DNA of 22,886 nt from Candidatus Thorarchaeota archaeon SMTZ1-45 (GTDB lineage: Archaea > Asgardarchaeota > Thorarchaeia > Thorarchaeales > Thorarchaeaceae). The notes beneath the pieces were generated by a model. That model did no database searches. It saw only the letters and a list, made by a program, of their open reading frames with translations, and was not told the DNA's origin. Below are positions 13,296-21,727 of this stretch, one piece after another. Made by a program: the position numbers and the translations under genes. Each line of letters starts with the position of its first letter. The stretch's first letter is position 1. The stretch is taken from assembly GCA_001563335.1 (NCBI GenBank), contig LRSL01000036.1, positions 1 through 22,886 on the forward strand, written 5' to 3'.

Positions 13296-14591
13296 CTACT
13301 GACCAAGATCATCAAAGGTAACTATCTTCATACTGGTAGGCTTGTTCTCAATATCTGCAACAGCAGCTCCTATCATCAGCTCTGTCTTTTTCTTACCAGC
13401 AATGTCCACTAGTCTTTGTGTAATCACGCCATCAAACACAATAGCTGGAACCCGTTCTTGCTCTTCTAGAATCTTTGCAAGTTCTGCTACTCCACACTCA
13501 ATGATGACCTGTTTGTCCTCTCCATACAGGAGTGCTTTGAATGATTCCTTGATATCTCCAATTTTAGACAAATACACTTCATCAATGGCCACCGGTATTC
13601 TTCTTGTCACAGCTCTCCGTCGACTTGAAATTTGATCATCTTCCTCTAATGCAGGCTTGTCAAAATCATCGACTGATTTTGTTCCTCGGCGAGTCTTTGT
13701 GACCTTCTTGCTTGGTCGTTTCCTCCTTGCGGGAGTTGCTTTTCTATCCTTCACTAGTGTGAGCGCTTGATCAGCTGGAATCTGAGCCTGAAGTGCTTTT
13801 GTGACCTCTCTTCGAGTGAGGTTCTCGACTTCTTTCCCTTCTGGAGCTCGAGCAATATAGTGGACTTTTGCAACCTGCATCAGCTCTCTAAGAATCAGGT
13901 CTCCGCCTCTATCCCCATCAAGGAATGCGATTATCTTCTTCCCTCTCTTCTTTGTGAGATCAACTATACTCTTTGGAATATGTGTGCCTTCAACAGCAAC
14001 TGTGTTTGTAATTCCACATTTCATGAGATTGATTACATCTGCTCGACCTTCAACGATTATGATTTCAGAGCCTTCGTCTAATCCTGGACCTGCTGGTAAG
14101 CTATCTGGACCATATTTCGCTACTGTTACCTTGCTACCCTTAGTGACAGCAGTCTGAATCTCTTCAGTGCCTGGTGAAATATCCTCTTCCCACCCCTTCA
14201 GGATACTAATAGCTCGACTGACCACCTTTCTCCTTTTTGCTCCTCTGATGTCCTCAAGCTTCTCTAGAATTACTCTCGCAGTGCACGGACCAACTCTATC
14301 AACAGTTTCCAATGATGCTGCAAGGATTGCTGTTGCAGTCTTGTTTAATGAAACGGGTATCACAATCTCTCCAGTACTATTCCCACCTTCGGATCTTATC
14401 ACAATCTGAATTCTTCCAATACGACCAGTGCGTTGAAGTTCTCGTAAATCAAGATCTTCCCCGAGTAATCCTTCAGTCTGGCCAAATATTGCTCCTACAA
14501 CATCAGGCTTGTCAACCACGCCTTCAATTTCAATCCGGGCGCGGATGACATATTTGGCTGCACTCTGGTCGAAGTCTGTTCCTATTTCTAT
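13296..14591 (-). CDS. dnaG: Archaeal DnaG (TOPRIM, exosome-associated)
   Basis: KYVIRARIEIEGVVDKPDVVGAIFGQTEGLLG, IIVEGRADV, FLDGDRGG, VFDGVITQRLVD. Start extended past the ORF-track GTG 14519 to a putative ATA. Confidence 0.95.
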   Translation of the reverse strand: MEIGTDFDQSAAKYVIRARIEIEGVVDKPDVVGAIFGQTEGLLGEDLDLRELQRTGRIGRIQIVIRSEGGNSTGEIVIPVSLNKTATAILAASLETVDRVGPCTARVILEKLEDIRGAKRRKVVSRAISILKGWEEDISPGTEEIQTAVTKGSKVTVAKYGPDSLPAGPGLDEGSEIIIVEGRADVINLMKCGITNTVAVEGTHIPKSIVDLTKKRGKKIIAFLDGDRGGDLILRELMQVAKVHYIARAPEGKEVENLTRREVTKALQAQIPADQALTLVKDRKATPARRKRPSKKVTKTRRGTKSVDDFDKPALEEDDQISSRRRAVTRRIPVAIDEVYLSKIGDIKESFKALLYGEDKQVIIECGVAELAKILEEQERVPAIVFDGVITQRLVDIAGKKKTELMIGAAVADIENKPTSMKIVTFDDLGQ

Positions 14592-14832
14592 ACACGTCTC
14601 CTATATTATGCTACCACGTTACCTTGCTCCTCAAACCAAGGTGATTCTACCTGCGTTTTGTCGCGGACCTACCTATGCATCTAGACTGTGCTTGGAATAA
14701 GACCTGTGTGATATACTCAAACCCATGCCCGAACATATGCTATGTTAATCGTAATGATAACCCTGTGAATGATAATCGTCCTAAGACTTTGCGCAGTGCT
14801 CTCACCGACTATTATTCTTTGGTCCAGAGCCG

Positions 14833-15343
14833 GGATTGCGTGGCGCTGTGATATGATGATATGATGATTTGCAAAGCACAGCTGAGTCTTAATCACCTGT
14901 GCTACACACGGGGGCTGTTTCCCGAGTGTATTTGAAGATGTCGCTATCACCATATAGTTCTTATCGAGATATGTTTCACCATCATCAATTTCAACCTGAA
15001 TCGCGCCATGTGACAATCCTAATAACACAAGAAATACAGGATCTCTTGTTCAGGAATATTCAGTCCCGTTCACGAGGGCGCACTGAGGATTGTCCTATGA
15101 GGTGTTGCGCATAGGGCGGGTCACATCCTGGACAAATGCCTGCCAAACACCGAATGGACGAGCCCTAACGGACTCGCTTGATGAGGATGTTGGTCCTTAG
15201 ATGAAGAGTGGGTCACCCAGGTTTCGTATATTGGCGGGCGGGTCGGTGTCAGCATACCCGACACGAGACAGCTCAGTGGAGCCAGATGTAATATCTGATG
15301 CTATGAATCTGGGAGTTAGTGTGAAGGGTTACAGACATCGACC
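14833..15343 (+). ncRNA. Candidate large structured non-coding RNA, family unknown
   Basis: No credible ORF; many nested helices (see findings); G-U pairs mostly favour the + strand; boundaries approximate. Confidence 0.55.
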
Positions 15344-15354
15344 ACCATCTAGTT

Positions 15355-16026
15355 CTAGATCTCTGTTGACTCACCAGGTTTAATGACAATCACCTTCGTG
15401 TCCGGACTAGACTCGGAAACAAGATGTTTGAACTTCTCAGGATTTGCCTCTATCACAGGGAATGTGTCATAATGCATAGGAATCACATTTCTCGCTTTGA
15501 GAAGTTTTGCTGCTAGAGCAGCTTGATGGATATCCATTACAAAATATGAGCCAATGGGCAATAGAGCGACGTCAATTGGACCATACAATTCTCCCAGTAA
15601 CCGCATAGATGAGAACACTCCTGTATCTCCCGCATGGTAGAAAGTACCACTTGGAAACCTAACCACAAAACCTGTTGGAGCTCCAATGCCTGATGAATGG
15701 AATGCTTGAACCAGTGTCACAACCACACCCCCAATATTCACACTTCCTCCAATATTGAGAGTGTGAATATTCTCAACCCCTTGAGAACCCGCTTTATGTG
15801 CTAGCTCATTTATTGCTACTAGGTATGCTCCAGTTTTCTTACAAATTCCAAGTGCTTCTGCATAACCATGATCACCATGGTCGTGAGTGACAAGCACAAT
15901 ATCCGCTTTATCAACATCTTCTACTGTTATAGGCGATGTTGGACCAGTGAGCCATGGGTCCACAAAGACAGTCTTTCCATCTTCTTCAATTTTGAATGAT
16001 GCGTGACCTAGAAACGTGATTTTCAT
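15355..16026 (-). CDS. Metallo-beta-lactamase-fold hydrolase (UPF0173-like)
   Basis: FLGHASF, VDPW, THDHGDH, AFHSS, YHAGDT, LLPIG, IPMHYDTFP. Confidence 0.95.
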   Translation of the reverse strand: MKITFLGHASFKIEEDGKTVFVDPWLTGPTSPITVEDVDKADIVLVTHDHGDHGYAEALGICKKTGAYLVAINELAHKAGSQGVENIHTLNIGGSVNIGGVVVTLVQAFHSSGIGAPTGFVVRFPSGTFYHAGDTGVFSSMRLLGELYGPIDVALLPIGSYFVMDIHQAALAAKLLKARNVIPMHYDTFPVIEANPEKFKHLVSESSPDTKVIVIKPGESTEI

Positions 16027-16150: not shown

Positions 16151-17065
16151 ATGGAACCAAAACCCCATCCAGACTTCATGAAAGCAGGAAAGATTGCTGC
16201 AAATGCATTAAGTTTTGTAGCTCCAATGGTGAGGCCAGGGGAGAAAGTGCTAAAAATCTGTCAACTGGCTGAGAAAAAGATACGAGAATCAGGAGCTACT
16301 GGAATCGCTTTTCCTTGCAATGTTTCAATCAATGATGAGGCTGCGCATTACACTAGTCCTCATGGTGATACCAAGAAGTTTCCGGAAAAGGGTCTTGTCA
16401 AGATCGACCTTGGTGCCCATGTGAATGGATATATCTCTGACACAGCTATCACTATTGATCTGGATGGATCTTACGAGAAATTTGTTCAAGCTGCTCGAGA
16501 GGCTTTAGAGTCCGCTATTGAAGTTGTGACTCCAGATGTTTCCTTGGGTGATGTTGGAAAAGCAATTGAGCGAACCATAAAACGCCACGGTCTTAGACCA
16601 ATTCATCAGCTCTCAGGACATCAATTAAAGCCATGGAATCTTCATGCTGGAAAGAATGTCCCTAATGTAGGGATGAAACTGACAGCAAAGATGCGTCTTG
16701 GAGAAACTTTTGCAATAGAACCCTTTGCCACAAATGGGAATGGCACAATAAAGAGCGGCCCTCGAGCCTATATTTTCTCGAATGATATGAGGAATAAGAA
16801 AAAGCTCGATGCGACCACCATGAGGGTACGAAATATTGCTCGCCAAAGATTTGGGAGTCTACCTTGGGCTGGAAGATGGCTTCACTCTAAAAGTGGCAAA
16901 ATCGATGTAGAAGCTGCGTTAAACAATCTTCAACGAGTAGGTGCCATTCATGGTTATGCAGTTTTATATGAGGGTAAAAATGGGATGGTTTCACAGTTTG
17001 AACATAGTATATTTGTTGGATCAACTGGAGCGATTGTATCGACGCGTCGAGATGATGAAGTCTAG
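16151..17065 (+). CDS. map: Type II methionine aminopeptidase, copy 1
   Basis: AFPCNVSIN, AAHYT, KIDLGAHVNGYISDTA, SGH, AIEPF, SQFEHS. Confidence 0.95.
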   Translation: MEPKPHPDFMKAGKIAANALSFVAPMVRPGEKVLKICQLAEKKIRESGATGIAFPCNVSINDEAAHYTSPHGDTKKFPEKGLVKIDLGAHVNGYISDTAITIDLDGSYEKFVQAAREALESAIEVVTPDVSLGDVGKAIERTIKRHGLRPIHQLSGHQLKPWNLHAGKNVPNVGMKLTAKMRLGETFAIEPFATNGNGTIKSGPRAYIFSNDMRNKKKLDATTMRVRNIARQRFGSLPWAGRWLHSKSGKIDVEAALNNLQRVGAIHGYAVLYEGKNGMVSQFEHSIFVGSTGAIVSTRRDDEV

Positions 17066-17120: not shown

Positions 17121-18020
17121 GTGACTACTGGTTTACACCCTTCAGCAATAGAATCAGGAAAAATTGCAGCACGTGTGTTGAGTGAAATCAGTACTGAGAT
17201 AGAACCTGGGAAGAGAATCATCAAGATTTGTGCATCAGCTGAAACAAAGATTAAGAAGTATGGTGGAGTCCCTGCTTTCCCCCTCAATGTTTCTATTAAT
17301 CATATAGCAGCTCACAGCACATCACCAAGGGGCGACCGAAGTGAGATTCCTGAGTTCGGGCTTGTGAAGCTGGATGTGGGTGTGCATGTTGATGGATATA
17401 TCACCGATACAGCACGCACCATAGACATCGATGGAACTCTTGAAGGATTTGTTTCTGCAACGGATGATGCTTTAGATGATGCGATTCGATTGATGCAGCC
17501 TGGGGCAGAGCTAGGTGATGTTGGACAGACCATTGAATCTGTAATTAAGGAATATGGGCTTAGACCGGTGAAGAACTTGTCAGGTCACAGTCTTAAGAGG
17601 TATAGACTTCACGCAGGGAAAATTGTACCAAATGTCAAGAAGAAAGGAATTGGTACAATAGAGGTTGGAGAATATTACGCAATTGAACCATTTGCCACCA
17701 CTGGAACCGGAACAGTCATTGATAGTGAGTACGTCTATATTTTTGCGAACACAGGAATTGATGAGCCTCTGGAAGGTGCTACTGAACAACTCCGAAAATA
17801 TCTTCGTGATAAATATGGCCCCTTCCCATTTGCATCACGGTGGATTGGTACATCCAGCAAAAAAGTGGACATAATTGAAGAAATCAAAGCACTACTCAAA
17901 GCAAAAGCAATCCGTGGTTATCCAATGCAGATAGAAAAGAAGGGACGACCAGTGAGTCAGACCGAGCACACGGTCTATATCTCAGAGGGTGGTCCCATTG
18001 TTTTGACTAAAATGGACTAG
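17121..18020 (+). CDS. map: Type II methionine aminopeptidase, copy 2
   Basis: AFPLNVSIN, AAHST, KLDVGVHVDGYITDTA, SGH, AIEPF, SQTEHT; GTG start after AGGTGA. Confidence 0.95.
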   Translation: MTTGLHPSAIESGKIAARVLSEISTEIEPGKRIIKICASAETKIKKYGGVPAFPLNVSINHIAAHSTSPRGDRSEIPEFGLVKLDVGVHVDGYITDTARTIDIDGTLEGFVSATDDALDDAIRLMQPGAELGDVGQTIESVIKEYGLRPVKNLSGHSLKRYRLHAGKIVPNVKKKGIGTIEVGEYYAIEPFATTGTGTVIDSEYVYIFANTGIDEPLEGATEQLRKYLRDKYGPFPFASRWIGTSSKKVDIIEEIKALLKAKAIRGYPMQIEKKGRPVSQTEHTVYISEGGPIVLTKMD

Positions 18021-19517: not shown

Positions 19518-19598
19518 GCTCGAGATTATTCATTGTTCTTTTAATGACTTCTATCTCTACATTTTTCATATGAGAGAGTAGTAGAGAAGAATGAGAAT

Positions 19599-19714
19599 GT
19601 GGCAGCTTCAGGGCCTGTCACGCGCTCGCGCAGCGCACATCTCCCTGAACGTCCTGAGGCTTAACTTCTGAGTTCGGCCGAGTTCAGGTGTACCCTCAGA
19701 ACTATGGCCGCCAT
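19599..19714 (-). rRNA. rrf: 5S rRNA
   Basis: Minus strand: TGGCGGCCATAG...ACACCTGA..CCGAACTCAGAAGTTAAGCC...GCTGCCA; helix I TGGCGGC/GCTGCCA; TTAAAA ~25-30 nt upstream. Confidence 0.93.
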
Positions 19715-19741
19715 CAAAACGTTTGTCCTTCATCTTTGGTT

Positions 19742-21727
19742 TTAAGCATTACTCTGTGACAATTCCTTTCGTTTAGAGCGAGCCTGTGAGAGAAATGCAC
19801 CAACATCATCATCCCAAGCACCATCATCTCTTAGTAGACGTCGGTAGAGATCAAGTGTGTAATTTCTGAATGCTGTTGGTCTCATACATCTAATTGTTAA
19901 ATCATTCTCAATACCATACTTTGGCATTTTCATCGTTAATTCATAAGCTGCATCTTGAGTGAATGTTGATAATATAATCCCCATATCCGCTTTTTTGTTC
20001 AGCATTGCTAAAGATGTTGGAGTATTATCAAGAAGAGCCTTAGTTAACGAGATTAGATGCTTAGATTCACCTTGGACAAGCGTGGCAATTGAAACTAACC
20101 GAGCATCTTCAACATCATAGGTAACATCAACAACACCCTGATTGTATAACTTGGATAGAATTGCATGGACTTGTTTCTTACTCAAACTCCAGTATTTGAA
20201 ACGATCTTCTCTTTCAAAATCAACTAGATAGATTCCCCTAGATGCTAATCCGGCAACAGTTGCTTCATCCTTAGACATCTGATATGTATCTAAACTAGTC
20301 CTTTTTCTATAATGTCTGTCAAGTTTTCTCATTGAACTCTTATTACTTAATGATTTAGTTATTTGATTCACTGGTATTACCCAATTCTCTAATTCATCAC
20401 TATACAAATCAAGATTAACTGACCTAATTGACCATGCAACTTCAATCACATTTGGAAGGAATCTCTTGATTCGCTCTGCAGCAGTTTGTGGCATTGTCAT
20501 TACGTGTATATGTGGAGGATTATCGCTAGACAAACCTAACTTTGCTATGAATTTCATATGTTGATGTGGCCATCTATAAGCAGCACCAAGATAAAGAAGC
20601 TCTGTGAGCCCAATAATTTTGAAATTAATATGTCCTCTAATCCTCAGACCGTGAGAAACAGCAGCTAAACGTTCTCTCCAGACTCTTTTGGATCTCTTAG
20701 CACGGGAAAACGTAGCAGGCATTCTAGTTACAACTTTTTCCGATTTATTCAACTCCCTTGCTGAATTAATGGCTGTACCAATCCAATTTGGAAATAACTC
20801 GTTTACTTTTTGCCTAAAAATATCCCATGGTGAATCCAAGTGAGCATGAAGCGTTGCTATTGGTTGCTGTAATTGTTTTCTCTCAGCCAACTTCAAGTAC
20901 TTTATGTAGGGTGGCCACTTGGTTTTTGAAGAAACACATCTTTGATGACCGCGTATTAGATTACCGAATAGCTGGAGGGACTGTGCACGAAATGAAAAAT
21001 TCACAGGATCTTCCATTAGAATTTCAGGTTTAATTGCATATGCAAGAAATGCCATCAATTCCTCTCTAATCTGATTTGGAAATGATTCTGGAACAAATTG
21101 CGACAAGGTGTTTCTCATTGACCCTCCAAGTTTCAGATTGGGTATAGTTACATCACCAATGAGTCTTGAAATGTTCTCCCATGATGCTGAAAAATCATCC
21201 AAAACACTCAGAATCTCGTTTCTGTTTGATTGTCCCTCCTCCTGAATAATATAATCATCCCACTGTTTCTGATGTTCTTGATTATCAAGCAAACGTATTG
21301 CTTCAACTTCATAGTCATGTATCACCTGCGATTCAAGGACTCTTCCTGTCTTCGGGTCCCCGATGAGCAGCCATTTCCTTGCTTCCTTCTCAATTCGTTG
21401 AACAACATAGATAGCACTCTCTATGCCTAATTTCATTCTCCCATAGAATCCTCCAGTAGATGGGGGGAACACATCCTCAATCAATTGACCGACATCTCTT
21501 AGATATGGTCGCTTTACAATGAGTATTGGATCAAAGAAAATTCTATTTTCACTACTTATTGAATCGTCCTTGAGTTTGTAAAATGCATTAGTAATTGTTT
21601 GATTTGATATTATTGCCCCAGTTCCCAATCTTATTGATATTCCATCATCCTCAATTCTGAGGACTCCATTCTCAACCTCTTCTTCAGTTATCCACACTAC
21701 TACTGCTAAGCTATTAGAAGAGTTCAT
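19742..21727 (-). CDS. Hypothetical 661-aa protein, possible C-terminal winged-HTH
   Basis: Long uninterrupted ORF; LSKKQVHAILSKLYNQGVV resembles a wHTH recognition helix and wing. Confidence 0.85.
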   Translation of the reverse strand: MNSSNSLAVVVWITEEEVENGVLRIEDDGISIRLGTGAIISNQTITNAFYKLKDDSISSENRIFFDPILIVKRPYLRDVGQLIEDVFPPSTGGFYGRMKLGIESAIYVVQRIEKEARKWLLIGDPKTGRVLESQVIHDYEVEAIRLLDNQEHQKQWDDYIIQEEGQSNRNEILSVLDDFSASWENISRLIGDVTIPNLKLGGSMRNTLSQFVPESFPNQIREELMAFLAYAIKPEILMEDPVNFSFRAQSLQLFGNLIRGHQRCVSSKTKWPPYIKYLKLAERKQLQQPIATLHAHLDSPWDIFRQKVNELFPNWIGTAINSARELNKSEKVVTRMPATFSRAKRSKRVWRERLAAVSHGLRIRGHINFKIIGLTELLYLGAAYRWPHQHMKFIAKLGLSSDNPPHIHVMTMPQTAAERIKRFLPNVIEVAWSIRSVNLDLYSDELENWVIPVNQITKSLSNKSSMRKLDRHYRKRTSLDTYQMSKDEATVAGLASRGIYLVDFEREDRFKYWSLSKKQVHAILSKLYNQGVVDVTYDVEDARLVSIATLVQGESKHLISLTKALLDNTPTSLAMLNKKADMGIILSTFTQDAAYELTMKMPKYGIENDLTIRCMRPTAFRNYTLDLYRRLLRDDGAWDDDVGAFLSQARSKRKELSQSNA

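Follow-up and report, generated by a model that had tools for sequence, protein, structure and literature searches.

Positions 15048-15343 of the window, the 22,886-nt stretch of Candidatus Thorarchaeota archaeon SMTZ1-45 DNA that was analyzed, encode on the + strand, with a probability of about 85%, a box H/ACA small RNA of about 300 nt with three guide hairpins for pseudouridines in the core of 23S rRNA. The L7Ae protein would bind the K-turn of each hairpin and Cbf5-Nop10-Gar1 would bind each lower stem with its A-N-A box, while the two pocket strands would base-pair with 23S rRNA so as to flank a uridine, the presumed substrate for conversion to pseudouridine by Cbf5. Hairpins 2 and 3 would then be the Asgard counterpart of the double stem-loop RNA sR-h45 of Haloferax. 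The hairpins are the 3' portion of a larger structured RNA region (14745-15345, + strand) that lies between dnaG and a gene for an MBL-fold protein, both of which are on the - strand. This 3' portion of about 300 nt, for which H/ACA-type hairpins are the most likely identity, and the 5' portion of about 280 nt are treated here as separate questions.

A preliminary description had proposed a structured RNA of about 520 nt that starts at 14833, and all of the words that it quoted are found at their coordinates. The 511-nt stretch does fold below its shuffles, with z-scores of -3.36 for the + strand and -3.30 for the - strand, and 0 of 100 shuffles are equal to it. The proposed extent was too short on the 5' side, in that the conserved element begins near 14745, about 90 nt further upstream. 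The element is present in single copy in its own genome, and not in the manner of a multicopy MITE, and motif searches that allowed up to two mismatches gave only chance matches, such that a repeat or mobile element was rejected. One exact 13-mer on another contig (C44) falls within an ORF, in antisense orientation, and lacks a hairpin. The DNA of the element is present in 75 of 86 Thorarchaeaceae genomes and in all 16 genera, with the arrangement of dnaG, RNA and MBL gene retained. A hidden protein gene was also rejected, given that the overlapping ORFs are all of 103 amino acids or fewer.

The only Rfam 15 family that reaches its gathering score in the window is 5S rRNA (19597-19715). A cmscan search of 14450-15450, with E values up to 10, gave no credible family match, H/ACA families included, and Rfam likewise gave no match to the homologous RNA at 20 loci of other Asgard families. 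Identity as RNase P or SRP RNA, whose hallmarks had been described as absent, was rejected, because both RNAs are located on other contigs of the same genome: the RNase P RNA on contig C11 (6966-7304, 168.5 bits) and the SRP RNA on contig C24 (47149-47457, 85.5 bits, which is below the cut-off). The earlier assignment to an unknown family is true only insofar as the RNA has no matching Rfam model, because the predicted targets of hairpins 2 and 3 are those of sR-h45, in the same order, which would place the RNA in the known H/ACA class.

Each of the three tandem H/ACA-type hairpins in 15048-15343 has a lower stem, a conserved pocket, an upper stem with a K-turn and an A-N-A box 3' of the lower stem, and each is enclosed by an additional, covarying outer clamp helix of 8-10 bp. 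All of the coordinates that follow are on the + strand. Hairpin 1 (D2, 15048-15133) is enclosed by the clamp 15048-15055/15126-15133; its lower stem pairs 15065-15071 with 15114-15120, its upper stem begins at 15078, and its pocket is formed by 15072-15077 (ACGAGG) on the 5' side and 15109-15113 on the 3' side. The G-A dinucleotides of its K-turn are at 15085-15086 and 15099-15100, and its ACA box is at 15123-15125. Hairpin 2 (D3, 15138-15239) has the clamp GCCTGCCAA (15138-15146) with TTGGCGGGC (15231-15239), a lower stem of 15158-15164/15220-15227, an upper stem from 15173, pocket strands at 15165-15172 (CUAACGGA) and 15213-15219 (UCACCCA), K-turn G-A dinucleotides at 15180-15181 and 15203-15204, and an ANA box, AUA, at 15228-15230. 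In hairpin 3 (D4, 15241-15343), the clamp is GGTCGGTGTC (15241-15250) with GACATCGACC (15334-15343) and the lower stem is CCC (15257-15259) with GGG (15326-15328), perhaps extended by CAC/GUG. The upper stem begins at 15272, the pocket strands are 15265-15271 (GAGACAG) and 15314-15318 (AGUUA), the K-turn G-A dinucleotides are at 15279-15280 and 15305-15306, and the ACA box is at 15331-15333.

The A-N-A boxes run straight into the 3' strand of the outer helix, with no free tail, and we know of no tested H/ACA RNA in which the box is placed between two helices. The distance from the G-A dinucleotide to the base of the upper stem, counted on the sequence, is 9 nt in each hairpin. By our own count, the ANA box is spaced from the pocket by 14 nt in hairpin 1, 13-15 nt in hairpin 2 and 16-17 nt in hairpin 3, where the range depends on the choice of the last-pairing pocket base. 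The rules given in work on Haloferax sR-h45 place the K-turn G-A 9-10 nt from the upper-stem base and the ANA box about 15 ± 1 nt from the target position (the n+15 rule), with activity up to 17 nt given an ACA box (PMC7075261).

The hairpins are supported by covariation, which had been named as a check on the preliminary description. In a family alignment of hairpins 2 and 3 (n=53), 97.1% of the cells are paired and 34 of the 57 pairs show changes on both sides, as compared to 17.2 ± 2.3 in shuffles, of which 0 of 500 reach 34, and to 10-14 in slid controls. The outer clamps of hairpins 2 and 3, which had been proposed as the helices of domains 2 and 3, each have two-sided changes in 7 of 9 pairs in this alignment and in 9 of 9 pairs among the 20 other Asgard loci. 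Across those 20 loci, 46 of the 57 hairpin 2-3 pairs change on both sides, in an alignment that was fitted to the model. For hairpin 1, the count is 14 of 21 pairs in a 33-sequence family alignment; this hairpin is absent in 6 of 20 genus members, which have a short hairpin in its place. The linker hairpins that had been drawn at 15026-15049, 15061-15085 and 15092-15099/15110-15117 clash with the covariation-supported fold of 15048-15133. A proposed pseudoknot of 15123-15129 with 15184-15190 is likewise not supported: its 5' half coincides with the ACA box and a strand of the outer helix, and by eye the two halves do not covary in other genera.

The ACA box of hairpin 1 is invariant (33/33), as are both A's of the A-N-A boxes of hairpins 2 and 3 (53/53), where the middle base is C, U or G. 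The K-turn G-A dinucleotides are invariant or near-invariant on both strands (n=53), and would be expected to form sheared pairs and to bind L7Ae. While the stems covary, the pocket strands of all three hairpins show conservation without pair-like behavior. The pocket of hairpin 3 is not a helix, because all 20 sequences from outside the Thorarchaeaceae have a non-standard combination at column pair 263/343.

Genes for Cbf5 (434.9 bits), Nop10 (75.1 bits) and Gar1 (41.4 bits) are present in the genome. Expression, another of the checks proposed earlier, is represented by RNA-library contigs from four runs in two studies that fall on 15059-15355; these derive from relatives (85-99% alike), may contain DNA and do not show strand or ends. 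One contig of 250 nt covers 15074-15322, and another stops at 15344 and continues as sequencing-adapter letters. None fall on 14600-15058, which is not evidence of absence. A near-invariant CTAATAAC (15019-15026, + strand), which precedes the first outer helix by about 22 nt, is possibly the TATA box of the H/ACA RNA; TAATAAC is found at that box in 35 of 39 family sequences. In other Asgard lineages, judged by eye, T-rich boxes precede the start of the homologous RNA by about 22 nt.

A covariance model of hairpins 2 and 3 (R1) was used to search 151 genomes of the phylum. It matches 51 of them: the genome itself, 26 of 26 other Thorarchaeaceae and 24 of 124 outside the family. The latter matches span 15 of 26 other families, mostly with one full-length match per genome, and in 17 of 20 loci from outside the Thorarchaeaceae hairpin 1, with the same pocket words, is directly upstream of the hairpin 2-3 match.

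Targets were predicted by a scan of Thorarchaeaceae 23S and 16S rRNA under a permissive rule, with sites required to be conserved in all LSU copies. The rRNAs were read from relatives, because those of the genome itself are not assembled. For each of the three hairpins, the best conserved site is in the functional core, with complementarity of 5+5 bp for hairpin 1, 6+6 for hairpin 2 and 6-7+5 for hairpin 3, and the sites recur in other lineages. Shuffled pocket strands gave an equal or better site in the same scan in 89, 61 and 11 of 200 cases, respectively. The proposed check for complementarity to rRNA yields core 23S sites for all three hairpins, but pocket complementarity by itself is not significant as compared to shuffles. 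The putative assignment of targets is based on which sites are matched and on the agreement across lineages.

The candidate target of hairpin 1 is the U two bases before a conserved CCUCGAUGUCGG stretch in the peptidyl-transferase loop. By our own numbering we take this U to be E. coli 2496, equivalent to yeast Psi2865; the yeast/E. coli offset of 369 used here is that between Um2921 and E. coli 2552, and likewise that between m5C2870 and E. coli 2501. The candidate for hairpin 2 is the UUU run that separates helices 90 and 93, corresponding to U2603-U2605 of H. volcanii. That for hairpin 3 is the helix 69 loop UAUG, corresponding to U1940/U1942 of H. volcanii, and the match leaves this UAUG unpaired. 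Under a strict canonical rule, with two unpaired bases and contiguous pairing from the target U, a site is found for hairpin 1 only, and none for hairpins 2 and 3. The canonical 2-nt gap is likewise confined to hairpin 1; in the Thorarchaeaceae, 4-5 target bases stay unpaired with each of the other two hairpins. Hairpin 1 of the genome itself makes only 3+5 bp under the strict rule, because its 3' pocket is GCAUA, where the family has GCAAG.

Guide and target change together in several lineages. Helix 69 of the Thorarchaeaceae has GUCUC facing the guide GAGAC, and four other families have CUCUC and GAGAG. Likewise, the Thorarchaeaceae target CCGUUG is matched by the guide UAACGG, and two other genomes (G120 and G031) have the target CCGUCG with the guides CGACGG and UGAUGG. 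Genome G031 is without hairpin 1, and its hairpin-1 target word is altered too. There are also exceptions: hairpin 3 keeps a guide G in its 3' pocket in genomes whose helix 69 carries G or A (G120, G031, G030, G107 and G042), G042 loses one pair per side, and the 5' pocket of hairpin 2 of G026 could not be paired. A match of 7+8 bp in the 23S rRNA of a relative (G001) was rejected, given that it falls within a variable hairpin for which other genera show no conservation, and a second match at position 2817 of the same rRNA was rejected as likewise not conserved. A target scan across the whole genome of SMTZ1-45 gave noise only. Same-sense mimicry of 23S rRNA by the pocket words was dropped, as blastn-short gave only 9-13-mers with E values of at least 0.077.

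The H/ACA sRNAs of Pyrococcus and Archaeoglobus have one to three hairpins, each with a K-turn or K-loop and its own ANA box, and the Asgard RNA is similar to these in its several hairpins, its K-turns and the ANA box of each hairpin. To our knowledge, those sRNAs do not have outer clamp helices. The closest described likeness is to sR-h45 of Haloferax, whose proven targets are, in 5'-to-3' order, the H90/H93 UUU run (Psi2605) and the helix 69 loop (Psi1940/1942), the latter by a 'UNUN' mode that leaves the UAUG of the loop unpaired (PMC7075261). As sR-h45 is described there, the two RNAs have in common a 5' hairpin aimed at the UUU run followed by a 3' hairpin aimed at helix 69, an upper stem that carries a tandem G-A K-turn, and an ANA box after each hairpin. 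Several Asgard lineages start the 3' pocket of hairpin 2 with two A's that are able to pair with the first two U's, as in stem-loop SL1 of sR-h45 (PMC7075261); the two U's are unpaired in the Thorarchaeaceae hairpin 2 target because the first A is C. Features of the Asgard RNA that sR-h45, as described, does not share are an additional 5' hairpin aimed at another target, an extra helix of 8-10 bp on each hairpin with the ANA box between two helices, and a distance of 1-5 nt between consecutive hairpins, as compared to a 56-nt spacer in haloarchaea (PMC7075261). The likeness of hairpins 2 and 3 to sR-h45 is one of predicted function, drawn from the described targets.

In eukaryotes, two different hairpins serve the two helix 69 sites (PMC7075261). 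Yeast Psi2865 is guided by snR46 and Psi2258/2260 by snR191, and both sites are marked as also modified in E. coli, in a listing that is without E. coli numbers (PMC8307265). The Asgard RNA would guide modification at what are taken to be the same helix 69 and peptidyl-transferase-center positions as those served by snR191/U19 and snR46 (PMC8307265, PMC7075261). The latter are separate RNAs, each with two hairpins, H and ACA boxes and no K-turn. If this is true, a single RNA carries the guides for the presumed most conserved LSU pseudouridines, for which eukaryotes use separate snoRNAs, and would be a useful marker for snoRNA-guided rRNA modification in archaeal relatives of eukaryotes. It would also be the first described H/ACA guide RNA of Asgard archaea, and one without an Rfam model; a literature search by exact-word matching found no earlier report of one. 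Model R1 could be used to annotate the RNA across the phylum. The clamp helices and the 5' domain would be small, testable oddities of an otherwise ordinary housekeeping RNA.

A very improbable alternative, which the UGAUGA and CUGA words might suggest, is a cluster of methylation guides of the box C/D type. Numerous RUGAUGA-like words are present in the 5' region, and there is a weak cmscan match to the C/D family sR33 at 14836-14887 (14.5 bits, E = 3.7, with a gathering score of 37), but no conserved CUGA D or D' box occurs at the required spacing, the CUGA words of this genome vary in relatives, and no conserved rRNA-antisense stretch of at least 10 bp was found in 14600-15050. In hairpins 1-3, the UGA and GAUGA words are the two halves of the apical K-turns. 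The preliminary description had read such words as K-turn or box C/D-like, and the K-turns are those of the three hairpins, with no conserved D boxes. Its cluster of guide RNAs survives as three tandem guide hairpins, made up of its domains 2 and 3 and its supposed linkers, and of the H/ACA rather than the C/D type. Almost no weight can be given to a cis-acting role for the region, as a leader or promoter of dnaG or a 3' element of the MBL-fold gene, instead of a stable RNA of its own. The element does fill the space between the two genes in every genome inspected, and conserved words are also present in 14604-14745, the first 140 nt or so from the dnaG start. However, as the preliminary description had noted, G-U pairs favor the + strand, where many pairs alternate G-U with A-U or G-C; read on the - strand, where both genes lie, the G-U pairs would become C-A mismatches. 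Furthermore, the same RNA adjoins unrelated genes in other Asgard families, once 250 nt downstream of 23S rRNA.

The 5' region (14745-15019) is a Thorarchaeaceae-specific, + strand structured stretch that may be either an independent RNA or the 5' domain of the same transcript. D0 (14745-14832, + strand) has two direct copies of a GUGA(U/A)UGAUAAUC-like word and then UCCUAAGAC; it is conserved in the genus alignment and recognizable in other genera, and neither a D box nor an Rfam match was found in it. D1 (14833-15019, + strand) has a closing helix (14840-14846/15003-15009), a UGAUAUGAUGAUUUGCA word, hairpins A (14875-14903) and B (about 14902-14930) and an invariant UAUUUGAAGAUGUCGCU (14929-14945), and is nearly full length by nhmmer profile in loci of most, not all, of the 16 genera. 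Hairpin A, proposed earlier as AGCACAG (14875-14881) with CTGTGCT (14897-14903), covaries within the genus, with two-sided changes in 3 of 5 pairs, and G-U/A-U alternation in D1 points to the + strand. The proposed closing helix GTGGCGC/GCGCCAT is conserved but with hardly any variation, and the pairing of TGATGAT (14854-14860) with ATCATCA (14981-14987) is not supported, as its 3' partner is in a non-conserved stretch. RNAalifold gave no family-level consensus fold for D1, and a hand-drawn structure is only 68.2% paired at that level; domain 1 of the preliminary description stands as a + stranded stretch that is conserved across the family. D1 was rejected as an H/ACA hairpin, since the ACA-like words after the closing helix or hairpin A are not invariant, and long-range D0-D1 pairings from a column-pair screen were unconvincing, with wobble-type variation only.

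It is possible, but unlikely, that 14745-15343 is one RNA of about 600 nt, in which the H/ACA hairpins are at least in part an assembly and stability module for a functional D0-D1 domain, much as in the composite scaRNAs of eukaryotes or in vertebrate telomerase RNA with its H/ACA domain. A related and equally doubtful proposal is that D0-D1 is a new Thorarchaeaceae-specific RNA domain with L7Ae-type UGAUGA words, joined to or co-expressed with the H/ACA RNA to form a composite RNP. The guide hairpins would supply assembly and stability, the 5' domain would have a task in ribosome biogenesis, and the clamps would be a phylum-wide Asgard variation on H/ACA RNA. D0-D1 adjoin the hairpins on the same strand, in an order kept in 16 of 16 genera, the G-U evidence places D1 on the + strand as it does the hairpins, and in other Asgard lineages the homologous RNA has at its 5' end a short GCGAUGA-like word, which resembles the start of D1. 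An H/ACA RNA that consists of the three hairpins is favored instead by the near-invariant TATA-like box before hairpin 1, by the lack of a demonstrable family-level fold for D1, and by a sister family (L190) in which the RNA begins directly before hairpin 1, with AT-rich DNA alone upstream. In one genome (G008), a 1.35-kb TnpB element on the opposite strand is inserted immediately 5' of the TATA-like box and splits it from D1, and the two halves are still 86-91% identical to those of SMTZ1-45.

The gap between dnaG and an MBL-fold gene (15355-16026, Lactamase_B_3), both on the minus strand, is unusually long at about 750 nt in the 3.54-Mb, 119-contig genome of SMTZ1-45. No open reading frame longer than 103 aa overlaps this gap, and GC content is 0.52 at 15000-15300 vs about 0.44 in the surroundings. 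The preliminary description had placed here a large multi-domain RNA of no known family. The words that it quoted are all present where it had located them, about half of its pairings are supported and the remainder are not. The presence of structure was borne out, given that the 511-nt stretch has z-scores of -3.36 on the plus strand and -3.30 on the minus strand, with none of 100 dinucleotide shuffles as stable. At Rfam gathering scores the window gives 5S rRNA (19597-19715) alone, and a search of 14450-15450 at E up to 10 returned two matches, both at chance level. The RNase P and SRP RNAs, rightly discounted earlier, sit on other contigs of the same genome, in which the stretch itself is single copy.

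DNA searches found the stretch in 22 of the 24 other genomes of the genus and in 75 of 86 family genomes, SMTZ1-45 included, representing all 16 genera. The order dnaG, stretch, MBL-fold gene is kept in every locus whose fetched piece included neighbours. Nucleotide identity of the stretch is 70-88% and protein identity of DnaG, which carries Toprim domains, is 76-87%; the stretch is therefore conserved about as tightly as its flanking genes. Covariation was detected at both levels. In a 20-sequence genus alignment, RNAalifold predicted 114 pairs, of which 23 show changes on both sides, with 97.4% paired; shuffled alignments gave 13.5 +/- 2.0 such pairs (0/500 reached 23) and slid controls 2-7. 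The 3' half, aligned over 53 family sequences, has two-sided changes in 34 of 57 pairs, with 97.1% of cells paired, as compared to 17.2 +/- 2.3 two-sided pairs after shuffling (0/500) and 10-14 in slid controls. Many pairs switch between G-U and A-U or G-C on the plus strand, where the minus-strand equivalent would be a C-A mismatch. Therefore the RNA lies on the plus strand, divergent from dnaG as first proposed and convergent with the MBL-fold gene.

The 3' part consists of three successive units of like architecture, at 15048-15133, 15138-15239 and 15241-15343. Each is closed by an outer helix of 8-10 bp, in which 7/7, 7/9 and 7/9 pairs of units 1, 2 and 3 show two-sided changes within the family; across 20 loci of Asgard families outside Thorarchaeaceae, 9/9 outer-helix pairs show them in unit 2 and likewise in unit 3. 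In the inner hairpin of each unit, the lower stem covaries and two conserved strands oppose each other without behaving as pairs, and one nominal pair in the third of these pockets is non-standard in 20/20 sequences from outside the family. The upper stem runs 9 nt to a G-A step, faced by three bulged bases and then G-A; the G and A of both steps are invariant or nearly so in the 53 sequences, and the arrangement matches the K-turn pattern. Directly 3' of each lower stem is an A-N-A box, which is ACA in 33/33 sequences for unit 1 and has both A's invariant in 53/53 for units 2 and 3, with C, U or G as the middle base.

Archaeal box H/ACA guide RNAs, as described in passages of PMC7075261, combine a lower stem, a pocket, an upper stem, tandem G-A pairs 9-10 nt above the pocket and an ANA box about 15 nt from the target. 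The units carry these defining parts, with box-to-pocket distances, by our own counts, of 14, 13-15 and 16-17 nt for hairpins 1, 2 and 3. Judged from sequence and covariation, the 3' 300 nt is most likely a three-hairpin box H/ACA pseudouridylation guide RNA, for which the clamping outer helices would be unusual. It corresponds to no Rfam family, and no earlier description from Asgard archaea was found in the literature searched. Genes for three protein partners of such RNAs are present in the genome: Cbf5 (434.9 bits), Nop10 (75.1 bits) and Gar1 (41.4 bits). Contigs from four metatranscriptome runs of two studies, 85-99% alike, fall on 15059-15355; they come from relatives and show presence in RNA libraries, not strand or true ends. 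One contig of 250 nt (15074-15322) reaches across all three hairpins, and another breaks off at 15344, where adapter sequence follows. None lies on 14600-15058, which does not count against expression there. In six species of the genus (G017, G006, G023, G003, G012 and G001), the inner part of hairpin 1 is lost (columns 339-408 of the genus alignment), such that the clamp helix alone remains as a short hairpin.

The 5' 280 nt is a conserved, family-specific, RNA-like stretch. Positions 14745-15019, which take in domain 1 of the preliminary description, are conserved in the family, G-U evidence again points to the plus strand, and the region holds several RUGAUGA-like words and the near-invariant blocks AUAUGAUGAUUUGCA and UAUUUGAAGAUGUCGCU. 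A hairpin at 14875-14903 covaries within the genus. At the family level, RNAalifold returned no consensus for this region and a hand-drawn structure is 68.2% paired, with slid controls little lower, so that the fold is established within the genus at most. Searches of 14745-15019 found no conserved D boxes, no invariant ANA box, no conserved antisense to rRNA of at least 10 bp and no second copy in the genome. A sister family (locus L190) is without it.

That this 5' part and the H/ACA hairpins form a single composite RNA is improbable. A near-invariant CTAATAAC box at 15019-15026 precedes the first outer helix by about 22 nt, and in other Asgard lineages T-rich boxes stand at equal distance before the 5' end of the homologous RNA, which starts just before hairpin 1. 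In one relative (G008), a 1.35-kb element lies between the 5' part and the CTAATAAC box (L025:1838-3188; G008:C50, ~20335-21685), and both halves are still well conserved. Oriented against the RNA, the element encodes a 402-aa TnpB-type protein (OrfB_IS605, 90.9 bits; Cas12f1-like_TNB; HTH_OrfB_IS605). The box, the RNA starts in other lineages and this insertion suggest that 14745-15019 may be separate from the H/ACA RNA, but they fall short of proof.

Since the rRNA genes of SMTZ1-45 are unassembled, targets were read from the 23S and 16S rRNA of three family relatives. A strict canonical scan gave a site for hairpin 1 and none for hairpins 2 and 3. A relaxed scan tolerated 2-7 unpaired bases in the target and at most 2 in the pocket, with the site conserved in all LSU copies. 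The best conserved sites in Thorarchaeaceae 23S are CUUGC-UU-CCUCG for hairpin 1, adjoining the peptidyl-transferase loop; CUGGGU-UUAGA-CCGUUG for hairpin 2 (6+6 pairs), at the UUU run of that loop; and ACUAAC(U)-(U)AUGA-GUCUC for hairpin 3 (6-7+5), in the helix 69 loop. The family-consensus pocket of hairpin 1 forms 5+5 Watson-Crick pairs around the canonical 2-nt gap; in SMTZ1-45 itself the 3' pocket is GCAUA, leaving 3+5 pairs only. Shuffled pocket strands gave an equal or better site in 89/200, 61/200 and 11/200 relaxed scans for hairpins 1, 2 and 3. The extent of complementarity is thus not special in itself, and the assignment rests on known guided sites and on agreement among lineages.

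The best conserved sites coincide exactly with known guided sites. By our own approximate numbering, we take the hairpin 1 site to be yeast Psi2865 and, presumably, E. coli 2496. Yeast Psi2865 is guided by snR46, according to a table in PMC8307265. For the Haloferax H/ACA RNA sR-h45, passages of PMC7075261 assign stem-loop SL1 to Psi2605, the last in a run of three U's lying between helices 90 and 93, and SL2 to the helix 69 positions Psi1940 and Psi1942, where UAUG stays unpaired. Among lineages, helix 69 GUCUC faces guide GAGAC in Thorarchaeaceae, and CUCUC faces GAGAG in genomes G120, G031, G030 and G107. For the 3' arm of target 2, Thorarchaeaceae have CCGUUG facing UAACGG; the other families have CCGUCG, which faces CGACGG in G120 and UGAUGG in G031; G031 is without hairpin 1, and its first target word is altered too. 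Against this agreement, G030 and G107 keep GAACGG opposite CCGUCG, one hairpin 3 guide G fails to track its helix 69 partner in five genomes, G042 has one pair fewer on each side, and no pairing was found for the 5' pocket of hairpin 2 in G026. In G001, where hairpin 1 is reduced, its 23S target word is unchanged. At 2411 nt, the 16S gene of G065 (L195, G065:C2:589938-592348) is longer than its 1478-position model, indicating a large insertion that may be an intron. The 23S gene of G065 carries 30 extra nt immediately before the hairpin 1 target (L193, ~2600), which are absent from the other two Thorarchaeaceae 23S genes.

When 151 genomes drawn from the phylum were searched with a covariance model built on hairpins 2 and 3, 51 had a match: SMTZ1-45, 26/26 others of its family and 24/124 from elsewhere, the latter spread over 15 of 26 further families. 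Under Infernal's stricter filters, matches were mostly one full-length copy per genome, with E of 1e-13 to 1e-2, and Rfam gave nothing at the non-family loci. Directly upstream, 17 of 20 non-family loci have a hairpin with the hairpin 1 pocket words (CGAGG ... GCAA[G/A] ... ANA). Therefore the three-hairpin RNA is a phylum-wide feature. Its neighbour genes vary by family, with dnaG or the MBL-fold gene close by in several. In the closed genome G120, of another Asgard family, it lies about 250 nt downstream of 23S on the same strand (L175:1-3247, G120:C1), which suggests that this lineage transcribes it together with the rRNA operon. In most loci outside Thorarchaeaceae (L172-L191), a GCGAUGA(A/U)GGAA-like word is conserved 85-115 nt before the match. 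The RNA seems to start with this word, which follows a T-rich, TATA-like box at a distance of about 22 nt and could be half of a K-turn or pair with the first lower stem.

The coding conservation of dnaG extends 22-24 codons upstream of its first canonical start, GTG at 14519 on the minus strand, and ends at an in-frame ATA (14585-14583), after GGAG and an in-frame TAG (14583-14603, minus strand). At the same position G020 has ATG and another genus, judged by eye, TTG, so that in most of the genus of SMTZ1-45 dnaG may begin at a non-canonical ATA. Between it and the 5' part, positions 14604-14745 hold the conserved words CCTGCGT and CCTATGC and a small covarying hairpin at about 14620-14642, and could represent the promoter or leader of dnaG, or a further part of the RNA region. 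Beyond the MBL-fold gene are tandem plus-strand open reading frames at 16151-17065 (Peptidase_M24, methionine-aminopeptidase type) and 17121-18020, the latter resembling a paralogue of the former as judged from its translation. Downstream of both, the 5S rRNA gene (19597-19715, minus strand) stands alone.
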